From sequence record KM389296.1: 24,317 bases of DNA; one strand, written 5' to 3'. Origin of the DNA: Escherichia phage CBA6. A program made the position numbers and the translations under genes. Below the pieces are notes generated by a model that saw only the letters and a program-made list of their open reading frames with translations, made no database searches and was not told the origin of the DNA. This document shows positions 8,153 through 17,954 of this stretch, piece by piece. Every line of letters begins with the position of its first letter. Position 1 is the stretch's first letter.

Positions 8153-8947
8153 TTAACAGAAACTCTTGTATGCCGCCGCTAGTTTGGTGTCATACTGGTT
8201 CTTGGCATATGCTGGACCATTGTACCGACGGGCGAACTCAGCCCAATTTTTGTTCTTCAATGCTTTCCACATATTGGCGTCAGCTTTGATGAATTTCACA
8301 AATGCCAGAAGATGTGCGCGTTCACCAGTCAGAAAATCTGTGAACATTTCTTTGGCGTTCGGATAACCACATATCTGGCAATTGAACCCCATGATCTGGA
8401 ATAAGCCGTAGGACGCACTCTCGTACGCGCAATCCTCATCAAGGGCGATTGCACCCTGAAGGCGTTCCAACTCCGCGTCTCCGCCGATATAGCCACCAGA
8501 ATTGGGGTTAACCAATGTTGGGTAAAGTTGGTACAGAGCATTGGCTCTTGCTTGTCCGAATTTAGCCGCCACTTTCTTATACATGATGTGGCGCTCGAAC
8601 AGAGTTTTGATCTTACCTGTTTTGGTGAAACCCGTTCCCCGAGATTCGACCTGGTTAACAGCTTTCATGCTGGCCAGTTCGACACCAAGTTCACGCGCTG
8701 CGTCAACTAAGTCGGCTTCGGTAAGATGTTCCTGATGAGCGTCTCCGGCATTACGGATAGCATAGAAGGTTTTTGGACCTGCAATACCATCAATCACCAG
8801 TCCGGCACCTGCCTGAACGGATTTGACAGCATTCTCGGTCGCTTTGCCAAATATGCCATCAGCTACAAGAGAGAACCCGATTTTATTGAGGCTTTGCTGA
8901 AGTGATTTGACTTCAGAACCTCGGTTGCCAAGTTTTAGAATGGCCAT
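8153..8947 (-). CDS. Endolysin: N-terminal peptidoglycan-binding domain plus C-terminal muramidase-like catalytic domain
   Basis: N-terminus LKLGNRGSEVKSLQQSLNKIGF...DGIFGKATENAVKSVQ is PG_binding_1-like; C-terminus (FERHIMYKK, GLFQIMGFN, NWAEFARRYNGPAYAKNQYDTKL) recalled as N-acetylmuramidase-type. No signal peptide or TM segment. Confidence 0.75.
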   Translation of the reverse strand: MAILKLGNRGSEVKSLQQSLNKIGFSLVADGIFGKATENAVKSVQAGAGLVIDGIAGPKTFYAIRNAGDAHQEHLTEADLVDAARELGVELASMKAVNQVESRGTGFTKTGKIKTLFERHIMYKKVAAKFGQARANALYQLYPTLVNPNSGGYIGGDAELERLQGAIALDEDCAYESASYGLFQIMGFNCQICGYPNAKEMFTDFLTGERAHLLAFVKFIKADANMWKALKNKNWAEFARRYNGPAYAKNQYDTKLAAAYKSFC

Positions 8948-12006: not shown

Positions 12007-12360
12007 TTAAGACAATTGCTTCAGTTTGTAGATGGTCTGATAGCACAGGGTTTTGATTTCATCGAGCGTATTTTGAAGATGGCTGTCACATTGACCGTAA
12101 ATTCCGTTTACGTCGATAACAACGCTATTGACATACGATATAGGATCTGGGTTGTACAGTTTAATATTCTCAAACCCTGGGACATATACACCACCCGCGC
12201 CGATATATGCCTCTGTAAAGGTATCCAGCAAGTCCTCCAGTTCCCCGTAGAACTCCCCGAGTGCCTTGTGCTTGGCATAGGACGTTGTAACGAAGTGGAG
12301 GGCATGAGAGTGGGCTATAGCAAGCAGTCCACGGTTGATGAAAATACTCGCGTTAACCAT
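12007..12360 (-). CDS. Hypothetical protein (117 aa)
   Basis: ATG with GAGGAAACAATC Shine-Dalgarno; preceded by a terminator hairpin. Confidence 0.55.
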   Translation of the reverse strand: MVNASIFINRGLLAIAHSHALHFVTTSYAKHKALGEFYGELEDLLDTFTEAYIGAGGVYVPGFENIKLYNPDPISYVNSVVIDVNGIYGQCDSHLQNTLDEIKTLCYQTIYKLKQLS

Positions 12361-12382: not shown

Positions 12383-12404
12383 ATCCCCCTGTATTTAGGG
12401 GGAT
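12383..12404 (-). terminator. Rho-independent terminator after the 190-aa gene
   Basis: Stem ATCCCCCT / AGGGGGAT with 6-nt loop; on the minus strand followed by TTCTTTTTCTG. Confidence 0.6.
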
Positions 12405-12420
12405 CTTCATTTCACCACGA

Positions 12421-12993
12421 TTAAATCGGTTTCACTCCGATGTACTTGGCGATATCCGCGGCCAGGGTTTTCCCCTTACTGATATCTTGTTGCTTGCCAC
12501 CAACAGTAACGATCACATATGGGTCATCTTCACCGCCGAAGTCGATTGCCACGGCCTTGCCAATACCAGGGATGCCGGAATATTCATATTCAGTGCGACC
12601 GCTTTTGCGAGACTTGCCGACACCCAGCGCTTTACCGATCATCTTATCCATGTTCGCTAGTTCTTGAGCATAGGATTCTGTGACCTGGCCTTTGCTGGCG
12701 TCTTTACCAAAGAAGAATTCGTATCCGTCATGAACGGCAACAACATCTTTGCCCACAGAAACCGCATGAACCTGGTCCGGCGTCAGTTTCACTTTAGTAG
12801 TATTACCATTAGTCAATTCCAGATTATAGACATCGGCCTGATTATCAGGAGTGATCTGGGTCACGGTAGCGCCGGAGCACCATTGTGTTCCATCGGCTTG
12901 TTTAGTGATGGTTACACTTTTGCCTTGTATACCGCCATGAGTTTGCGGCTGCTGGGCTTGTTCTTTAAAATATTCGATAAACGGTTTCATCAT
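12421..12993 (-). CDS. Hypothetical protein (190 aa)
   Basis: ATG with AGGAG Shine-Dalgarno; flanked by hairpins at both ends; Gly/Lys-rich; no recognisable motif. Confidence 0.6.
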   Translation of the reverse strand: MMKPFIEYFKEQAQQPQTHGGIQGKSVTITKQADGTQWCSGATVTQITPDNQADVYNLELTNGNTTKVKLTPDQVHAVSVGKDVVAVHDGYEFFFGKDASKGQVTESYAQELANMDKMIGKALGVGKSRKSGRTEYEYSGIPGIGKAVAIDFGGEDDPYVIVTVGGKQQDISKGKTLAADIAKYIGVKPI

Positions 12994-13019
12994 GGATCTC
13001 CTAAGGATTTTGATGTATT

Positions 13020-13037
13020 TAGCCCCCGAAGGGGCTA
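13020..13037. terminator. Stable hairpin (CGAA/UUCG tetraloop) between the 906-aa and 190-aa genes
   Basis: Stem TAGCCCC / GGGGCTA; the T-tract (TGGTTTATTT) is on the plus side and is weaker on the minus side, so terminator versus processing site is unresolved. Confidence 0.45.
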
Positions 13038-13041
13038 TGGT

Positions 13042-15762
13042 TTATTTCAGACGGATCTGGAGATTACCACCCAGTGATTGTTCATATTCACTGTAAGCAC
13101 TGTCACCATTGCTCATAGCCCATTCGTCCGACTGACGGGCGCTATCCAAAGTCATGAGATTCGGTTCGGTCGGGTTGTATCCCTTCGCCTTCGCATCGTT
13201 GTATACCGTTTGCAGGTACTGGTTGGCACGGTTAATCTGATCTTTGAACTCACGATATGCACCTTCGGTTGTGTTGCGACGGAAGGTGATACTCCAATCG
13301 ACGTTAAGAACTGCGCCGCTATTGGTCACGTATACCTGCCAATCAAGATCTCGTCCGTTGGGAGCACTGTTGCGGATGGAATCGGAATATGTGGCCAGAT
13401 CGCTGCTGTTCTTGCCCCCAGCAGCTTGGTCTTTGGCGCGAGCCAGGGCATCAATGACTGCAGTGCGGTTTCTAGACTGCGCCAGATCTTTGTCTTGGAA
13501 CATAATTGCACCAAACTTACTGACGGTGATATCATTCAGAAACAGCTTGTTCGGGTTATAGTTTGATGAACTGAGATGGCTCAATTGAGCCGCAGCGTCT
13601 TTCAGGCGTTGTGAAGTCTCATTCAACGCATCTTGCACAGACTTGACAGATAACTGAATGTCATATCCGCTGCTGTTGACTACATTTCGGCCATTTTCGG
13701 TCAGCATGGTCGTGATGTTGGCCTTATTACGATCGAAGTCGTAAGTCACGTTCGTAACGAACCGTGCGGCTTGCAGCTGGCTACCCGCAGGGAACTGGAA
13801 GTCCCAAGCCACAGAGAACCCATGAACGGTTTCACCAAATATCTTCGCATTGCTTGGGGCTTTCAGGTTCGCAGTGATGACAGCGTTATCACTGGAATTT
13901 GTGTTGATTTCGCCGAAGATAGTCTTCCCATCAGAAGACTGGACCATCAGAGTATCTTTGCTGCGCCAGTCATAACGAACAATAAACGTCGTTCGAGGGA
14001 ACTCTTTTATCAGATCGAGTTTGACTGCCTTACCCAGAGTAAAACGATTTAACAATGCATCGGCGATCTTCAAAGTAAACGAAATACAATCGACATAAGA
14101 ATAACCCTGGGAACGGGAAACCTTTTGAATCGGGTATGGGGCACCGTTGATCGGAACAACACGACATTCCACTTCACCTTTGAACTGAGAATCAGCAGCG
14201 CGGGATATCGCACTGACGATTTCAAAAGCAGCGTTTTTCACGTCGCCTTCCAGCAGCAGCTGTTCATTGCCAGATAAATCAGAAACCACTTCTACAGAGA
14301 GTTTGCTGTTGACAATCCCCCAAAAATAGACTTGAATATCCAACCCGCCAGAAGTTCGATATTTGCCAGCACCAACCCGAGACAATTTTTCACCAGCATA
14401 CATGCCGACTTGCTGAGGAGCATATGTATCAACGATGCCCAAGATGCGGGCGATATAACCCTGGTTGCGCAGATCATCCATAGAACCGGTTTTTGGAAGA
14501 GTTTTCATGTCGACGGGAGCAGTAGCCCCTATTCCAAACTCGACGTATGCCACGATCTTCCCACCAGACTTCAGTTCCCAGCCCATTCCCTGACGGTCTG
14601 AAGCCGCCATGATTTTGCGATCCACTTCTCCACGCCCGACATATTCTTTGTTGAATACCGTCACTTGTGCGATAGACTGAGTGCGGGCAATCTTCGCCAT
14701 CGCGCCATCTTTGACCATGATAGCCAGGTCATTGGAACTCAGGGTCACGTCGTTCGCGCCGACCACCTTCACAACAGAACTGAAGATGCCGTTGGACTTT
14801 GCCATAACGGAGATGTTCCAGTCCGGATTTATGGAAGACGGTGCATCAGCATCAACGTCAACAGTCAAAACCACTTGCCCACCTTTCTTGAACACATACT
14901 GATCATAGATGCCTTTATTTTGTTTTGTCATGACAGCGCCGACCAGATCCTGGTTAGTGAATCCCCGCTTCATGCTCCATGCCACTTCGGTGCCGTCCGG
15001 ATATTTGTCGAAATCATACCCAAAGAACTTCGCCACTTCACGTGAGCCACTGACCAGCTGCACGTAATTTCCGCGAATTGGGTCACGGCCATTTTTCAGT
15101 TCAAGACTAGTGTCAGAACTGTTATACCATTGGCGGTTTACTTCAATCTCGGTGCTGGAGCCAGTCCCAACATCAGGGGTGTTGTTCTGAACCGGAACGT
15201 CTCCGACTTTGTCTGGATCGTCCCAAGTCACGCCTTTCATTTTCGGACCATCAAATACCTGAGCAGGATCCTTGCCTTTACGCACAACCCATACGAAGGC
15301 ACGGTCAGGGATTGGGGTATAAGTCAGATCCATGACGTTGAGTTTCTGCTTCAGACCAGATTGACGAATAATTTTTGGGAGTAACGTCGTTCCGCGTTCT
15401 AGAGCTTTCTTGGAGAAGTTAATCGCAAACCCATCAATGGTTTTACCCAGCGGTGTCGCCATGAATTGTTTAGTCGCTTCGATCATGGATGCGATGACAC
15501 GCATTGGGTTTTTGAAACGACCGATTGCGTCTGGATAGGTTGAACCACGTTTCTGGCCTATGAAGACCTGACGAACGTTCTTGCCCAGCCCCTGCGGGGT
15601 ATAAAATTGGATGCGGAATTCTTTTTCATCTTCGTCTACGAACGTGAAGAAAATGTCACCAGCATTTTTCTTGCCGAAAGTCAATTCGTATGGAGCGGAG
15701 TTAAACGCTTCGTCCAATTGTTTGGACTCGTCAAGGAAATTTAAGAAAGATTGGATGGCCAT
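13042..15762 (-). CDS. Large hypothetical protein (906 aa), function unknown
   Basis: Uninterrupted 2.7-kb ORF with ATG and AGGAG Shine-Dalgarno (AGGAGAATTACAATG); bracketed by hairpins; no catalytic motif recognised. Confidence 0.8.
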   Translation of the reverse strand: MAIQSFLNFLDESKQLDEAFNSAPYELTFGKKNAGDIFFTFVDEDEKEFRIQFYTPQGLGKNVRQVFIGQKRGSTYPDAIGRFKNPMRVIASMIEATKQFMATPLGKTIDGFAINFSKKALERGTTLLPKIIRQSGLKQKLNVMDLTYTPIPDRAFVWVVRKGKDPAQVFDGPKMKGVTWDDPDKVGDVPVQNNTPDVGTGSSTEIEVNRQWYNSSDTSLELKNGRDPIRGNYVQLVSGSREVAKFFGYDFDKYPDGTEVAWSMKRGFTNQDLVGAVMTKQNKGIYDQYVFKKGGQVVLTVDVDADAPSSINPDWNISVMAKSNGIFSSVVKVVGANDVTLSSNDLAIMVKDGAMAKIARTQSIAQVTVFNKEYVGRGEVDRKIMAASDRQGMGWELKSGGKIVAYVEFGIGATAPVDMKTLPKTGSMDDLRNQGYIARILGIVDTYAPQQVGMYAGEKLSRVGAGKYRTSGGLDIQVYFWGIVNSKLSVEVVSDLSGNEQLLLEGDVKNAAFEIVSAISRAADSQFKGEVECRVVPINGAPYPIQKVSRSQGYSYVDCISFTLKIADALLNRFTLGKAVKLDLIKEFPRTTFIVRYDWRSKDTLMVQSSDGKTIFGEINTNSSDNAVITANLKAPSNAKIFGETVHGFSVAWDFQFPAGSQLQAARFVTNVTYDFDRNKANITTMLTENGRNVVNSSGYDIQLSVKSVQDALNETSQRLKDAAAQLSHLSSSNYNPNKLFLNDITVSKFGAIMFQDKDLAQSRNRTAVIDALARAKDQAAGGKNSSDLATYSDSIRNSAPNGRDLDWQVYVTNSGAVLNVDWSITFRRNTTEGAYREFKDQINRANQYLQTVYNDAKAKGYNPTEPNLMTLDSARQSDEWAMSNGDSAYSEYEQSLGGNLQIRLK

Positions 15763-15843: not shown

Positions 15844-16212
15844 TTATAACCCTTCAATCCTTACGTTGACATATTTTGTTTCGTAATTCGGGTCACGGCC
15901 TTCAGAGTAGTCATATGTCTGAATGGTCTGTACGCACAGAGTTATTTTGAATTTGGCAATCTTCATAACCGCGATGCCAAAGTCAACCAGGTCATCCTTT
16001 TTATCTAGCACCAGGCCTTTAGTGCCGAGTTCACGTAATAAGTCTTTAAACAAGCGCTTGGACGGGTTGCTGATATCGAGCGGACCAGTTTTACACAGGG
16101 GAAACCCCTTGATGATTTTGTTGCTACGGTCACGCGCGATTTTATTGTTCCCACGACGAATATTCTTGTACCCAGCAACGTTTAGAATGTTGTTCAATTC
16201 AGTTTTGGTCAT
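15844..16212 (-). CDS. Hypothetical protein (122 aa)
   Basis: ATG 16212 preceded by the conserved leader AGCAGGAACTACATC; the track's 16233 start is TTG. Basic, Lys-rich. Confidence 0.6.
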   Translation of the reverse strand: MTKTELNNILNVAGYKNIRRGNNKIARDRSNKIIKGFPLCKTGPLDISNPSKRLFKDLLRELGTKGLVLDKKDDLVDFGIAVMKIAKFKITLCVQTIQTYDYSEGRDPNYETKYVNVRIEGL

Positions 16213-16285
16213 GATGTAGTTCCTGCTTTTCAAGTTGGTGTCGTACTGCTTATGTTTAGAATTATACGGTAGTTATTGAAGAAGT

Positions 16286-16309
16286 AAAGGGGCGTTTGCC
16301 CCTTTTATT
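16286..16309. terminator. Bidirectional rho-independent terminator
   Basis: AAAGGGGC / GCCCCTTT stem with GTTT loop; TTTTATT on the plus side and TTTACTTCTTC on the minus side. Confidence 0.65.
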
Positions 16310-16317
16310 GAATTATT

Positions 16318-16956
16318 TTAAGGTGTGGGATTGACGACAGGGATGTGAAATCTGATTCCAGCAACGATGTCCTTCAGCTGAGGCTTCCAGCCGTCCACCA
16401 GGCGGGACAACGCATTGGAACCAGGATAGACGATAATGATATCGCTTCCGGTAACATTATGCTGAGGGAATTGTGACATGTATTGCTCCATCGTCACACC
16501 TGTGTCAATCAATACAGGACCAACATCAGAAGATGCATATGTCGCGCCCAGACCGTCAATACCCCATGCCAGAATTCCATAATCGGGAATATTGGCTTCG
16601 GATGTTATGGTGTATCCGAAGATACGATTCAACGCCGAGAAGTCATAGACATTGTGAGCACTATCATATGCCAGATAACCTTTGGCCAACATATCAGCAA
16701 AGATCGCGTCTGTGTCGCCAGCGGCTGGGGTCGGAACGGTAAACAGTAGCTCACCTGCCGGAGGAGTAGGATACGTGCCGAGAGCATAAAGGCACCATGC
16801 GTCGACACATTTCTTGATAAACGCTTCGGGAGCAACATAATCAGCCAGGCGCATCGTTCCAGAATATTCAGAACTGATGATGCCTTCTTTTGCCCCCTGA
16901 ATCGCAATAAACACCATTAAGTGCTCGTATCCGGTCTGAGATGGAGTGATATTCAT
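16318..16956 (-). CDS. Hypothetical protein (212 aa)
   Basis: ATG overlaps the stop of the upstream SLT-like gene by 1 nt (TAATG); no signal peptide; no recognisable motif. Confidence 0.6.
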   Translation of the reverse strand: MNITPSQTGYEHLMVFIAIQGAKEGIISSEYSGTMRLADYVAPEAFIKKCVDAWCLYALGTYPTPPAGELLFTVPTPAAGDTDAIFADMLAKGYLAYDSAHNVYDFSALNRIFGYTITSEANIPDYGILAWGIDGLGATYASSDVGPVLIDTGVTMEQYMSQFPQHNVTGSDIIIVYPGSNALSRLVDGWKPQLKDIVAGIRFHIPVVNPTP

Positions 16957-17573
16957 TATCGGGTCCTCTTGAGTTTCTCAATCGTGCGCTTATTCATGGC
17001 GATCACTCCTGGGTCGACCTTCGGGTTTATTGCCATGCCTTTGAAAGACACACATCGTTGAAGATATTTAGCCTTCTTCACGACATCAGCAGCGTATGAA
17101 TTGGATTTTTGGTTACGACTGAAACCGGCATTGTAAGAGGAGAGCGATTTGCGGATGTTTTGGTTATGATACCCAAGCCAGAAATTCATTTCATCAAGGG
17201 CTGCATTGGCTGCGTACTCTTGATTGACCAGCAATTTAATCGCCACGTTGGCGTAACACTTCTGTGTTTTGCATCCCTCCCGTTTCCCAACGGTTTGGAC
17301 GCGATTTTGGAATGCCCCCATATTAGCCGATTTCAGGTTATTCCGCATGGATACCACATCTTCTCCGGCGCGGCTTTCCCTCCATGATATCGCGGCTAGG
17401 GTGAAACCAAGGTCTTGCTGTTTGCCTATGTGATAGGCAGTGGCCATAGTTGAAAGTTGCTGATCAGAAAATTCGTAATCACATTGGGTGGTACTTTGGG
17501 AAGCGTACACACTCCCGCTGGCAATGGTAAAGGTCACGGACAAGGCCATGGCCTTCAACGTTGTCATCGTCAT
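16956..17573 (-). CDS. Secreted lytic transglycosylase-like protein (SLT domain) with N-terminal signal peptide
   Basis: N-terminus MTMTTLKAMALSVTFTIASGSVYA looks like a Sec signal peptide; SLT family motifs in order: WRESRAG (catalytic E-S), NMGAFQ, SYNAGF, YAADVVKKAKY. Confidence 0.65.
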   Translation of the reverse strand: MTMTTLKAMALSVTFTIASGSVYASQSTTQCDYEFSDQQLSTMATAYHIGKQQDLGFTLAAISWRESRAGEDVVSMRNNLKSANMGAFQNRVQTVGKREGCKTQKCYANVAIKLLVNQEYAANAALDEMNFWLGYHNQNIRKSLSSYNAGFSRNQKSNSYAADVVKKAKYLQRCVSFKGMAINPKVDPGVIAMNKRTIEKLKRTR

Positions 17574-17639
17574 GATGGCGTTCCTTATGTGTTTGTCGAC
17601 TTGCAGCTCGATTGAGCCTCCTGACAGGGTTAAAAGATA

Positions 17640-17665
17640 AAGGGCACTTGATATTTAGTGCCCTT
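17640..17665 (-). terminator. Rho-independent terminator ending the recombination/late-sigma operon
   Basis: Stem AAGGGCACT / AGTGCCCTT with 8-nt loop; on the minus strand followed by TATCTTTTAACC. Confidence 0.6.
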
Positions 17666-17669
17666 CACC

Positions 17670-17954
17670 TTATTCGTAGATCAGATGGTATGATTCCTCA
17701 ATACACTCTATCCAGCCGTAGACAAACTCCATAGGATCGTCCCATGCTGATTTTGATGCCACTATGAAATCCCCTTGGAGGATTTGCATATCTGTGTACT
17801 TGTTGAAACCCAAGACGGCGTCAACAACGATCAACCCACCTTGCTCTAGGTAACGTTTTGGTGTCAATGCTACCTGATGATGTTTATTTCGCTGATTCCA
17901 TAATTCCACAGCGATATCACAAGCAATCTGTATTTCATCTTTCTCTTCTGACAT
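17670..17954 (-). CDS. Hypothetical protein (94 aa)
   Basis: ATG start overlapping the 3' end of the upstream gene by 20 nt; acidic; no recognisable motif. Confidence 0.5.
   Translation of the reverse strand: MSEEKDEIQIACDIAVELWNQRNKHHQVALTPKRYLEQGGLIVVDAVLGFNKYTDMQILQGDFIVASKSAWDDPMEFVYGWIECIEESYHLIYE

Follow-up and report, generated by a model that had tools for sequence, protein, structure and literature searches.

A predicted Sec-exported, SLT-type ortholog of phage T4 Vs.1 and its overlapping DUF7270 partner gene in Escherichia phage CBA6

Two overlapping genes, one encoding a protein of 205 aa and the other a protein of 212 aa, form a two-gene unit between two hairpins in Escherichia phage CBA6 (KM389296.1; Table 1), where the whole stretch of DNA analysed, referred to here as the window, is 24,317 nucleotides long. 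The original prediction for this locus gave coordinates identical to those of the ORF list for both genes, but did not mention that the minus strand encodes them. The two ORFs are genuine genes: the first matches the PHROG 600 profile (3.1e-59, covering profile positions 4-176 of 178) and the second matches the Pfam family DUF7270 (6.7e-125; 415.1 bits against a cut-off of 27, positions 1-212 of 212), and homologues of both are present in hundreds to thousands of phage records. The upstream neighbour of the 205-aa gene is a 94-aa gene (PHROG 4165), with a DUF4326 gene one gene further upstream. A strong terminator-like hairpin follows directly after the 94-aa gene, and was not flagged by a terminator consensus scan because its U-tract lies partly within the stem. 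Identity to Limestonevirus JA15 is 96% across the 96-nt intergenic region, as opposed to about 76% for the flanking coding sequence. The 5' leader of the 205-aa gene is not unusually stable in structure (z = 0.59), and an Rfam search of the leader and intergenic region gave no match. At its other end the unit is closed by a GC-rich hairpin (AAAGGGGC-AAAC-GCCCCTTT), which is about 90% conserved in JA15; the scan flagged this hairpin on the plus strand, while on the gene strand its U-tract is weak (ACUUCUUC).

Table 1. Features of the two-gene unit and its flanks (positions are those of the window)
Feature	Position	Strand	Basis or remark
Terminator-like hairpin directly after the 94-aa gene	17625..17671	-	RNA fold -22.6 kcal/mol, z = -6.3
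Conserved leader ending in ribosome-binding site AAGGA (17582-17586), 8 nt before ATG	17574..17624	-	
205-aa gene: T4 Vs.1 ortholog (PHROG 600), precursor of a predicted SLT/GH23-type peptidoglycan glycan-strand cleaving enzyme	16956..17573	-	
Predicted Sec (signal peptidase I) signal peptide, codons 1-25, likely cleavage between VYA and SQ	17499..17573	-	n/h/c heuristic
Predicted GH23 catalytic domain, residues about 36-174; predicted catalytic Glu66 codon 17376-17378	17052..17468	-	
Further CTAAATA(T) copy within the 205-aa coding sequence; the DUF7270 start follows 113-116 nt downstream	17065..17071	-	
Basic C-terminal extension, residues 175-205	16959..17051	-	alignment; full length only in Ackermannviridae members
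212-aa gene: DUF7270 (PHROG 3923), acidic (pI 4.5), without signal peptide, virion-associated in related phages	16318..16956	-	
GC-rich hairpin closing the two-gene unit	16283..16309	-	

The loop and stem top of the upstream hairpin contain ACTAAATATC (core CTAAATA, 17652-17658), a candidate for a gp55-type late promoter that would serve both genes. The sheath, VrlC, neck and scaffold genes of Sajous1 have this motif 30-49 nt upstream, and CTAAATAcCcc has been cited as a regulatory motif of Ackermannviridae (PMC7283392). The T4 late-promoter consensus TATAAATA is absent from the window, as judged by a motif scan. The second CTAAATA(T), which lies within the 205-aa coding sequence, may possibly serve as a late promoter for the DUF7270 gene. 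The nucleotides of this internal copy are preserved in Kuttervirus, Limestonevirus, Miltonvirus 3M and Ea2809, where nearby codons vary synonymously; in Miltonvirus 3M this holds even though an Ala is replaced by Thr. The metagenomic L014 lacks the internal copy.

On the coding strand the junction of the two genes reads GAGGACCCGATAATG, so that base 16956 belongs to both the TAA stop and the ATG (TAATG), and the GAGGA ribosome site of the DUF7270 gene (16964-16968) is embedded in the 205-aa coding sequence. Among the junctions of five genomes that were compared, a one-base overlap of the form TAATG or TGATG, together with GAGGA, is kept in four genera, while a relative whose two proteins show 38% and 36% identity has an ATGA four-base overlap instead. 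The earlier proposal that the overlap couples the two genes is supported by this conservation of a stop/start overlap across Ackermannviridae, and DUF7270 may be translated by re-initiation at TAATG, perhaps with additional expression from an internal promoter.

By sequence comparison, the 205-aa gene is identified as the Ackermannviridae (Kuttervirus) ortholog of phage T4 Vs.1. BLASTP against T6 Vs.1 gave 32% identity over 173 residues (E = 3e-20), and tblastn of the 205-aa protein gave matches in 2,104 phage records, on genes annotated vs.1, with T-even, RB49-like and FelixO1-like phages among the carriers. The family is restricted to phages and its members are 170-205 aa long, many of them being named 'Transglycosylase SLT domain' or 'Vs.1'. 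T4 Vs.1, which goes by the name 'Vs.1 conserved hypothetical protein', has the same size, signal peptide and motifs as the 205-aa protein, while the Ackermannviridae form contains four cysteines, ends in a basic extension of 30 residues, is preceded by a late-promoter motif rather than lying in the T4 e-regB-vs.1-vs cluster, and is coupled to DUF7270 instead of vs. This T4-type neighbourhood is absent here, with DUF7270 as the downstream neighbour; synteny is not a criterion for belonging to the Vs.1 protein family. The resemblance of Vs.1 to SLT enzymes has been in print since 2006 (PMC1524935), and a literature search for a tested function of Vs.1, or for the activity, export or localisation of any family member, found only Nolan 2006. 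With this publication and the 2,104 matching records, the view that such a protein is unusual for a phage does not hold, and a Sec-exported muralytic enzyme of a phage has an experimental precedent in the SLT endolysin of Campylobacter phage F352 (PMC7692668). More than 2,000 sequenced phages, T4 itself among them, encode a Vs.1-type protein, and its role is therefore also a question of T4 biology.

The 205-aa protein is predicted to be a divergent, single-domain enzyme of the SLT/goose-lysozyme type (GH23), with its motifs in the order E66-S67, G86-A-F-Q89, S146-Y-N-A-G150 and Y160. In an alignment of 12 sequences from six phage lineages (32-38% identity), E66-S67, G86, F88, N90, Y147, N148, G150 and Y160 are invariant, and conservation is 90% or more at Q89 and S146. 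When the family profile was used, the best PDB match was the goose-type lysozyme 1gbs, with E66 placed on the catalytic Glu73, while a single-sequence phmmer search of the PDB with the 205-aa protein, and an NCBIfam search, gave no matches. Pfam SLT (PF01464) matches the 205-aa protein at 21.1 bits (E = 2.4e-4), where the gathering cut-off of 21.3 is 0.2 bits higher, and matches 11 of 12 diverse relatives (best E = 3.9e-6); a precomputed PF01464 match is present in about a quarter of database relatives. The AF2 model has a pLDDT of 81.8 overall and of 85-96 across residues 36-174 or so, and its top Foldseek matches in the PDB are MltD, Slt70, MltE, MltC and a GH23 chitinase. The first 26 of these matches are all lytic transglycosylases or GH23 chitinase, with a probability of 1.0 for the first 13, although the accompanying statistics are modest (E 2.7e-3, TM 0.46). 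Like the GH23 enzymes Slt70, MltE, MltC, MltD and GEWL, the protein has the common fold, the ordered motifs (E-S, GxxQ, YNxG, Tyr) and an aligned catalytic Glu, but it is very divergent from them and lacks accessory domains and a lipoprotein anchor. The GH23 fold, together with ordered motifs kept across six lineages, bears out the SLT-type assignment made originally. Equivalents of goose-lysozyme Asp86 and Asp97 are absent in the profile alignment with 1gbs, and since these residues are not conserved, lytic-transglycosylase chemistry appears likely, a hint and nothing firmer. The protein is also, as had been proposed, distinct from the baseplate hydrolase (a CHAP-domain hub, 467-2092) and from the endolysin (8153-8947), which consists of PG_binding_1 and Muramidase domains and has no signal peptide.

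[quoted passage not shown] Under a heuristic that looks for a positive n-region, an uncharged h-region of 10-18 residues and small residues at -3 and -1, it is the sole passer among the 26 ORFs of the window. The signal architecture is kept without conservation of sequence in Kuttervirus, Limestonevirus, T6, RB49, a FelixO1-like phage and a Vibrio phage, and the signal peptide claimed for this protein thus stands as a heuristic Sec-type layout, kept as a property across six lineages. A comparison with signal-arrest-release (SAR) endolysins, in which an uncleaved, weakly hydrophobic N-terminal membrane domain rich in Gly, Ala, Ser and Thr is set free upon depolarisation, gave mixed indications: the Kuttervirus h-region is rich in Ser, Thr and Ala and weakly hydrophobic (maximum KD19 = 1.21), while the T6, RB49 and Vibrio homologues have the short, strongly hydrophobic h-regions and AxA-type sites of typical cleavable signals. 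On inspection of the N-termini, no lipobox was found before any Cys, and no T4-type prohead-protease site (L/I-x-E) was found near the N-terminus of either protein. Downstream of the signal, Cys32/Cys174 and Cys101/Cys106 are probable disulfide pairs; in the 12-sequence alignment the members of each pair co-occur or are jointly missing across lineages, and this joint gain and loss fits disulfides formed in the periplasm.

The partner gene had been described simply as unknown, and can now be placed in Pfam DUF7270, a family restricted to Ackermannviridae with only 9 clusters among 1.84 billion proteins. In LIMEstone1, DUF7270 was detected in purified virions as ORF85, for which 4 peptides are listed under the name 'unknown structural protein' (PMC3296691). 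The molecular weight of DUF7270, 22.75 kDa, matches that of LIMEstone1 ORF85, and in the ViI record the homologue Vi01_096c is labelled 'phage associated protein'. Its presence in, or labelling with, virions argues for a structural role over that of an inhibitor, and DUF7270 would be an acidic cytoplasmic protein (pI 4.5, as opposed to 9.7 for the 205-aa protein) that ends up in virions. Structure comparison gave no fold relatives for DUF7270 and no likeness to any chaperone or inhibitor. T4 Vs, the product of the gene after vs.1 in T4, was considered as a relative of DUF7270 and rejected (hhalign probability 0.2%).

The explanation that we favour, with somewhat better than even confidence, is that the 205-aa protein is made late, exported through Sec and used as an accessory wall cutter alongside the canonical endolysin. 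In this model, the two-gene unit would be transcribed late from the gp55-type CTAAATA promoter in the loop of the upstream terminator, and late transcripts, by starting inside the hairpin, would escape termination. The precursor would be exported via Sec, without the need for a holin, and cleaved near Ala25, after which the enzyme would fold in the periplasm, forming the disulfides Cys32-Cys174 and Cys101-Cys106. It would then cleave MurNAc-GlcNAc bonds of the sacculus in a Glu66-dependent manner, likely by lytic transglycosylase chemistry, providing accessory wall cutting or remodelling in addition to the cytoplasmic endolysin. Like signal-peptide endolysins, the 205-aa enzyme would probably contribute little before the holin fires. 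Superinfection control, lysis timing and cell-wall remodelling, which were suggested originally, are candidate roles for it. T4 endolysin mutants do not lyse, indicating that Vs.1 alone is no sufficient lysin, and that its contribution may be small or conditional.

A comparable architecture is found in F352 Lys of a Campylobacter phage, an endolysin of 188 aa with a signal peptide and an SLT domain, which is Sec-dependent and activated by the holin (PMC7692668). F352 Lys and Lys44 of the Oenococcus phage fOg44 have in common with the 205-aa protein a signal peptide followed by one catalytic domain, at about 190 aa, and the proposed route to the wall is alike. Homology of the Vs.1 family to F352 Lys was considered and rejected, as no sequence similarity is detectable, leaving F352 Lys as an analogue only. 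Because CBA6 has a separate cytoplasmic endolysin, the 205-aa enzyme would be an extra and not the lysin, unlike F352 Lys. Small Sec-exported GH23 enzymes of 150-200 aa also serve secretion and conjugation systems (EtgA, IagB, IpgF, VirB1 and P19), and an EscI-EtgA fusion is among the weak matches of the family profile (E = 0.61). The 205-aa protein differs from these enzymes in showing no significant similarity to them and in having no known envelope-spanning machine to recruit it. Neither the enzyme class nor the export route nor the family is of a new kind. A conserved, predicted exported wall cutter that coexists with a normal endolysin represents a small but real gap in the model of wall handling by large virulent phages, and the strict conservation, within Ackermannviridae, of its coupling to a virion protein gives experiments a concrete place to begin.

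There are several observations that run against a purely periplasmic, accessory enzyme. The homologue in Sajous1, listed as 'RegB' gp211, was detected with 31 spectra in CsCl-purified virions, compared with 32 for the accepted virion protein gp215. In addition, the gene heads a cluster of virion-protein genes (Vi01_092c-096c in ViI and gp214-217 in Sajous1) and is coupled to one of its members, and the baseplate hub has a CHAP peptidase and no glycosidase, a gap that a virion-borne glycan cutter would fill. The protein could then be an entry enzyme that is packaged in or on the particle, cuts glycan strands at infection and complements the CHAP hub peptidase, perhaps while bound to the acidic DUF7270 through its basic C-terminal tail, with the hydrophobic N-terminus acting as a membrane-insertion segment or being irrelevant to assembly. 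The occurrence of DUF7270 in LIMEstone1 virions (PMC3296691) and its particle-associated label in ViI, the late-promoter motif upstream and the complementary pI of the two proteins (9.7 and 4.5) are consistent with this alternative, the chief rival of the favoured model, which we nonetheless regard as rather unlikely. The cleavable-signal architecture and the paired cysteines, both kept across lineages, point to the periplasm. As judged from record labels, ViI gives the 205-aa homologue Vi01_097c no particle-associated label, and the JA15 annotation, which carries the LIMEstone1 'unknown structural protein' labels, gives its homologue none. The Sajous1 preparation also held clear non-structural proteins, namely SSB, ParB, glutaredoxin and a lipoprotein. 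To our knowledge, no tailed-phage virion protein has a cleaved Sec signal, and we know of no report of T4 Vs.1 as a virion component. While the GH23 fold is shared with the N-terminus of T7 gp16 (a weak Foldseek match, rank 31) and with PRD1 P7, these are domains of large structural or ejection proteins that have no cleavable signal, as opposed to the free-standing, secreted-type protein described here.

A further reading, to which we give little credence, combines export with the virion: the enzyme and DUF7270 would be physically joined in a two-protein module specific to Ackermannviridae, in which a Sec-type enzyme ends up on or in the virion. The basic tail could dock on the acidic virion protein, or the enzyme could be captured before export. 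If true, the particle would carry the glycan cutter that is missing from the CHAP-type baseplate hub, which would be a novel way for a tailed phage to arm its particle and would reconcile the conflicting proteomes.

It is similarly improbable, in our estimate, that the two proteins are an enzyme and its regulator, with DUF7270 serving as a cytoplasmic holding factor, export helper or inhibitor. Strict adjacency and a stop/start overlap are kept down to 36-38% identity, as such a pair would predict, and the Ackermannviridae-specific basic C-terminal extension co-occurs with an Ackermannviridae-specific partner. Precedents exist in the 'lysis inhibitor' gene that overlaps the SLT endolysin gene of Firehammervirus and in Gp1 of mycobacteriophage Ms6; in both systems (F379_024/Lys and Gp1/LysA), a small conserved gene with no known fold overlaps the muralytic gene (PMC7692668). 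In both of them, however, the accessory gene lies upstream and its regulatory effect has been demonstrated by experiment, whereas here the partner is downstream, larger and virion-associated. A cytoplasmic regulator need not be in virions, as DUF7270 is, and all other lineages with Vs.1 do without it. The conserved internal CTAAATAT suggests that DUF7270 can be expressed independently, and the structure comparison found no chaperone or inhibitor that it resembles.

It is less probable still, and indeed very doubtful, that the 205-aa protein is a non-catalytic or differently targeted periplasmic protein, such as a peptidoglycan-binding factor for superinfection exclusion or lysis inhibition. 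Small periplasmic regulators, Spackle and RI among them, are indeed exported by T4-type phages, and Vs.1 homologues have lysis genes nearby: in T6 these are e and rI, and a FelixO1-like phage has rIIA/B and the spanins there. Similarity to GH23 is also weak at the sequence level. The Glu-Ser pair is nevertheless invariant, and the substrate-groove motifs are kept across the family, as selection for catalysis predicts.

Finally, many GenBank records (e.g. those of Maynard, Guerrero, JA15 and Coodle) name the protein a RegB-type site-specific endoribonuclease, an identity that has these database names alone in its favour, has next to no likelihood and is refuted by sequence comparison, since BLASTP against T6 RegB gave E = 0.096 over 6 residues as opposed to the far better match to T6 Vs.1, SLT is the sole Pfam family at E <= 0.1, and in T-even genomes the match falls on vs.1, the gene adjoining regB. 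Because T4 vs.1 adjoins regB, the common label is an annotation error by transfer from the neighbour, and it needs correcting in many GenBank records, including those of phages that are candidates for therapy and food safety.

The window derives from a Kuttervirus (Ackermannviridae, ViI/CBA120-like), and across the 2.8 kb around the gene pair its identity is 99% with Escherichia phage 241 and 98% with ECML-4. Both open reading frames lie exactly where they had been predicted, on the minus strand, and are real genes given their matches to PHROG 600 (the 205-aa protein, here called the enzyme) and Pfam DUF7270 (its 212-aa partner). The proposed overlap of stop and start is also present, with one base common to both at the coding-strand junction, GAGGACCCGATAATG.

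Coordinates of the genes and sequence elements considered in the text
Feature	Position	Strand	Remarks
205-aa gene (enzyme)	16956..17573	minus	ORF; PHROG 600 match 3.1e-59
212-aa gene (partner)	16318..16956	minus	ORF; Pfam DUF7270, 415 bits, full length
CTAAATA	12392-12398	minus	ahead of 117-aa gene
CTAAATA	13016-13022	minus	ahead of 190-aa gene
CTAAATA	17652-17658	minus	ahead of 205-aa gene
Internal CTAAATA, CTAAATAT	17065-17071	minus	inside 205-aa gene, 113-116 nt 5' of DUF7270 start
96-nt leader	17574-17669	minus
Sigma-70-like promoter match, TTTACT-16-TATAAT	16261-16288	minus	10/12; directly after DUF7270 hairpin
129-aa ORF	15844-16233		TTG start
906-aa gene	13042-15762	minus
190-aa gene	12421-12993	minus	small late gene; no Pfam match
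DUF5856 gene	12007-12360	minus	small late gene
Canonical endolysin	8153-8947		PG_binding and Muramidase
Baseplate hub	467-2092	plus	Gp5 OB and CHAP

In tblastn searches, the 205-aa protein has matches in 2,104 of 50,697 phage records, about 270 of them Ackermannviridae records at a minimum of 80% identity and the others T4-like, FelixO1-like, Vibrio, Aeromonas and Acinetobacter phages at 30-40%. The matching gene of T6 and RB49 is annotated vs.1 and directly adjoins regB, and in pairwise BLASTP the protein matches T6 Vs.1 (32% identity over 173 residues, E = 3e-20) and not T6 RegB, which rules out a RegB identity. These comparisons show that 'RegB', 'endoribonuclease' and 'site-specific RNA endonuclease', all common names for the protein in databases, are neighbour-transfer errors, the likely cause being that vs.1 adjoins regB in T4; that the 'RegB' label is clearly shown to be wrong is mildly new. 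The same naming error has also reached UniRef names and the records of T4-like phages. When 5.8 billion proteins were searched with a profile, the matches were solely phage-borne and of 170-205 aa, many of them named 'Vs.1' or 'Transglycosylase SLT domain-containing protein', and several records already label near-identical proteins as carrying an SLT domain. The protein belongs to the Vs.1 family and the GH23 superfamily; the original prediction had regarded such an enzyme as unusual for a phage, a view that does not hold: the phage family is large and already described, if uncharacterised, and this protein is an ordinary member of it.

The SLT assignment made from the motifs is sound. Pfam SLT scores 21.1 bits on the enzyme (E = 2.4e-4), 0.2 bits below the curated threshold, and is matched by 11 of 12 diverse relatives (best E = 3.9e-6), while the ordered family-1 motifs E66-S67, G86-x-F-(Q)-N90, (S)-Y147-N148-x-G150 and Y160, together with E128 and W132, are invariant in a six-lineage alignment. 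The best PDB match of the alignment profile is goose-type lysozyme, with a weak E-value (0.096) over 115 aligned residues, and places E66 on the catalytic Glu73; no conserved residue in this alignment corresponds to the Asp residues with which goose lysozyme assists hydrolysis, and this would hint at transglycosylase chemistry without proving it. The AlphaFold model (mean pLDDT 81.8; 85-96 over residues 31-180) has MltD, a GH23 chitinase, Slt70, MltE and MltC as its top Foldseek matches, at modest scores (best E = 2.7e-3, TM 0.46).

The predicted signal peptide is likewise recovered, in that the N-terminus, MTMTTLK-AMALSVTFTIASGSV-YA|SQ, consists of a charged n-region followed by an h-region of 18 uncharged residues, with small residues at -3 and -1. 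This layout is common to homologues from Limestonevirus, T6, RB49, a FelixO1-like phage, a Vibrio phage and metagenomic relatives, whose sequences differ, a pattern that would be expected from selection for export; such family-wide conservation of a putative export signal is mildly new. Only one of the 26 ORFs in the window, the 205-aa gene, passes the n/h/c signal test, by which the canonical endolysin has no signal-like N-terminal segment. Cys32 and Cys174 are both present in Ackermannviridae, FelixO1-like and Vibrio members and both absent in T6, RB49 and P0025, and Cys101 and Cys106 are both present in Ackermannviridae and the Vibrio phage only; pairs gained or absent as units would fit disulfides formed in the periplasm. 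Together, the predicted signal peptide and the cysteine pattern argue for a periplasmic location, and a periplasmic accessory enzyme is the top-ranked explanation, with slightly better than an even chance of being correct. The architecture is similar to that of signal-peptide endolysins, the nearest experimental precedent being the Campylobacter phage F352 endolysin, a 188-aa SP+SLT protein that requires SecA and its holin (PMC7692668). The two have no detectable sequence similarity, and the present case differs in that a canonical endolysin exists beside the enzyme.

Related phages carry DUF7270 as a virion protein. In LIMEstone1, ORF85 has been reported as an 'unknown structural protein' (22.75 kDa; four peptides; PMC3296691), and its mass is exactly that computed for the DUF7270 protein of Limestonevirus JA15, where the gene is annotated as an unknown structural protein. 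In phage ViI, DUF7270 (Vi01_096c) is labelled 'phage associated protein', like Vi01_092c-094c; the enzyme has no such label in the ViI record (Vi01_097c) or in the LIMEstone1-derived JA15 annotation. The DUF7270 protein is acidic (pI 4.5, the enzyme having a pI of 9.7), has no signal peptide by the n/h/c test, and is found in 282 phage records, every one with an Ackermannviridae-type name, and in just nine 50%-identity clusters among 1.84 billion proteins. The coupling of the two genes, as had been suggested from their overlap, is kept in Kuttervirus, Limestonevirus, Miltonvirus (Serratia 3M) and Nezavisimistyvirus (Erwinia Ea2809) as a one-base TAATG/TGATG overlap, with a GAGGA ribosome site seven bases upstream in the enzyme's final codons, and in a metagenomic relative (38%/36% identity) as a four-base ATGA overlap. 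An independent operon prediction also places both genes in one unit (PMC10892097). Because a different gene lies 3' of Vs.1 in other lineages (vs in T-even phages, polynucleotide kinase in a FelixO1-like phage), coupling to DUF7270 is an Ackermannviridae feature, as is the enzyme's 30-residue basic C-terminal extension in the alignment. This strictly conserved coupling to a virion protein, with conflicting proteomics, is mildly new.

The enzyme is, as originally proposed, separate from both the baseplate hydrolase and the endolysin. Since the hub has a CHAP peptidase domain, beside its Gp5 OB domain, in place of the T4-type lysozyme, the three wall-active proteins have three predicted bond specificities (CHAP, N-acetylmuramidase and GH23). 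CHAP in the hub has likewise been noted for CBA120 (PMC3184105). As this is a peptidase rather than a glycosidase, a virion-borne glycan cutter would make functional sense as its complement, and a virion-borne entry enzyme ranks second, although it is unlikely. In CsCl-purified Sajous1 virions, LC-MS/MS gave 31 spectra for 'RegB' gp211, which is the enzyme, a count similar to that of gp215, an accepted virion protein; DUF7270 (gp212) was not listed (PMC10892097). However, the same preparation also contained SSB, ParB, glutaredoxin and a lipoprotein (PMC10892097), the ViI and JA15 labels cover DUF7270 and not the enzyme, and the predicted signal peptide and cysteine pattern favour the periplasm. 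The Sajous1 report is inconsistent in its number of hypothetical virion proteins, giving eight in its text and six in its table (PMC10892097). Of the two adjacent, equal-sized genes, the Sajous1 data show only the enzyme and those of ViI and LIMEstone1 only DUF7270; a reporting gap or mapping issue is possible. An enzyme-regulator pair, ranked third, is a legitimate idea because overlap between an SLT endolysin gene and a 'lysis inhibitor' gene has been described (PMC7692668), but it is improbable, since the location of DUF7270 in virions makes an inhibitor role less likely. A non-catalytic periplasmic factor ranks fourth, at a still lower probability, and RegB, which the BLASTP comparison contradicts, comes last with almost no chance of being correct.

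With respect to expression, a very stable hairpin (-22.6 kcal/mol, z = -6.3) lies 5' of the enzyme gene and has ACTAAATATC in its loop. The T4 late consensus TATAAATA does not occur in the window. CTAAATA has four copies there, all on the coding strand, of which three are intergenic and lie ahead of genes with products seen in virions. All three are within or right beside GC-rich terminator hairpins, which points to a recurrent 'promoter inside the terminator loop' design whereby late transcripts would bypass terminators. In the Sajous1 structural module, six of eight copies lie 30-49 nt before a start codon on the coding strand; of these six, one is ahead of a helicase gene and five are ahead of the genes for VrlC, neck, sheath, gp153 and scaffold. 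CTAAATAcCcc has been cited as a regulatory motif of Ackermannviridae (PMC7283392), and CTAAATA is the late promoter of the T4-like phage Aeh1 (PMC1524935). From the placement of CTAAATA, the Sajous1 copies and these cited motifs, late transcription of the enzyme unit would start inside the upstream hairpin, so that transcripts would escape that terminator. The 96-nt leader is 96% identical to that of JA15, compared with about 76% for the flanking genes; outside the terminator hairpin it shows no strong structure, and Rfam gives no match. In four Ackermannviridae genera the internal CTAAATA is kept as a nucleotide sequence while the codons next to it vary, so that DUF7270 may have a late promoter of its own. 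The DUF7270 gene is followed by a GC-rich hairpin, and the good sigma-70-like match precedes the 129-aa ORF, whose annotated length differs among records (276-390 nt).

The 906-aa protein has no Pfam match, and its gene start differs among records (2,388-2,721 nt). It is called 'tail completion protein' in some of them without evident basis; with 196 spectra, its Sajous1 homologue gp214 ranked with the most abundant proteins of the virion, and its ViI homologue is labelled particle-associated. Homologues of the DUF5856 and 190-aa proteins are virion proteins in ViI, LIMEstone1 and Sajous1, and from low-identity Phyre matches the Sajous1 authors speculated on ferritin-like and molybdate-binding roles (PMC10892097).
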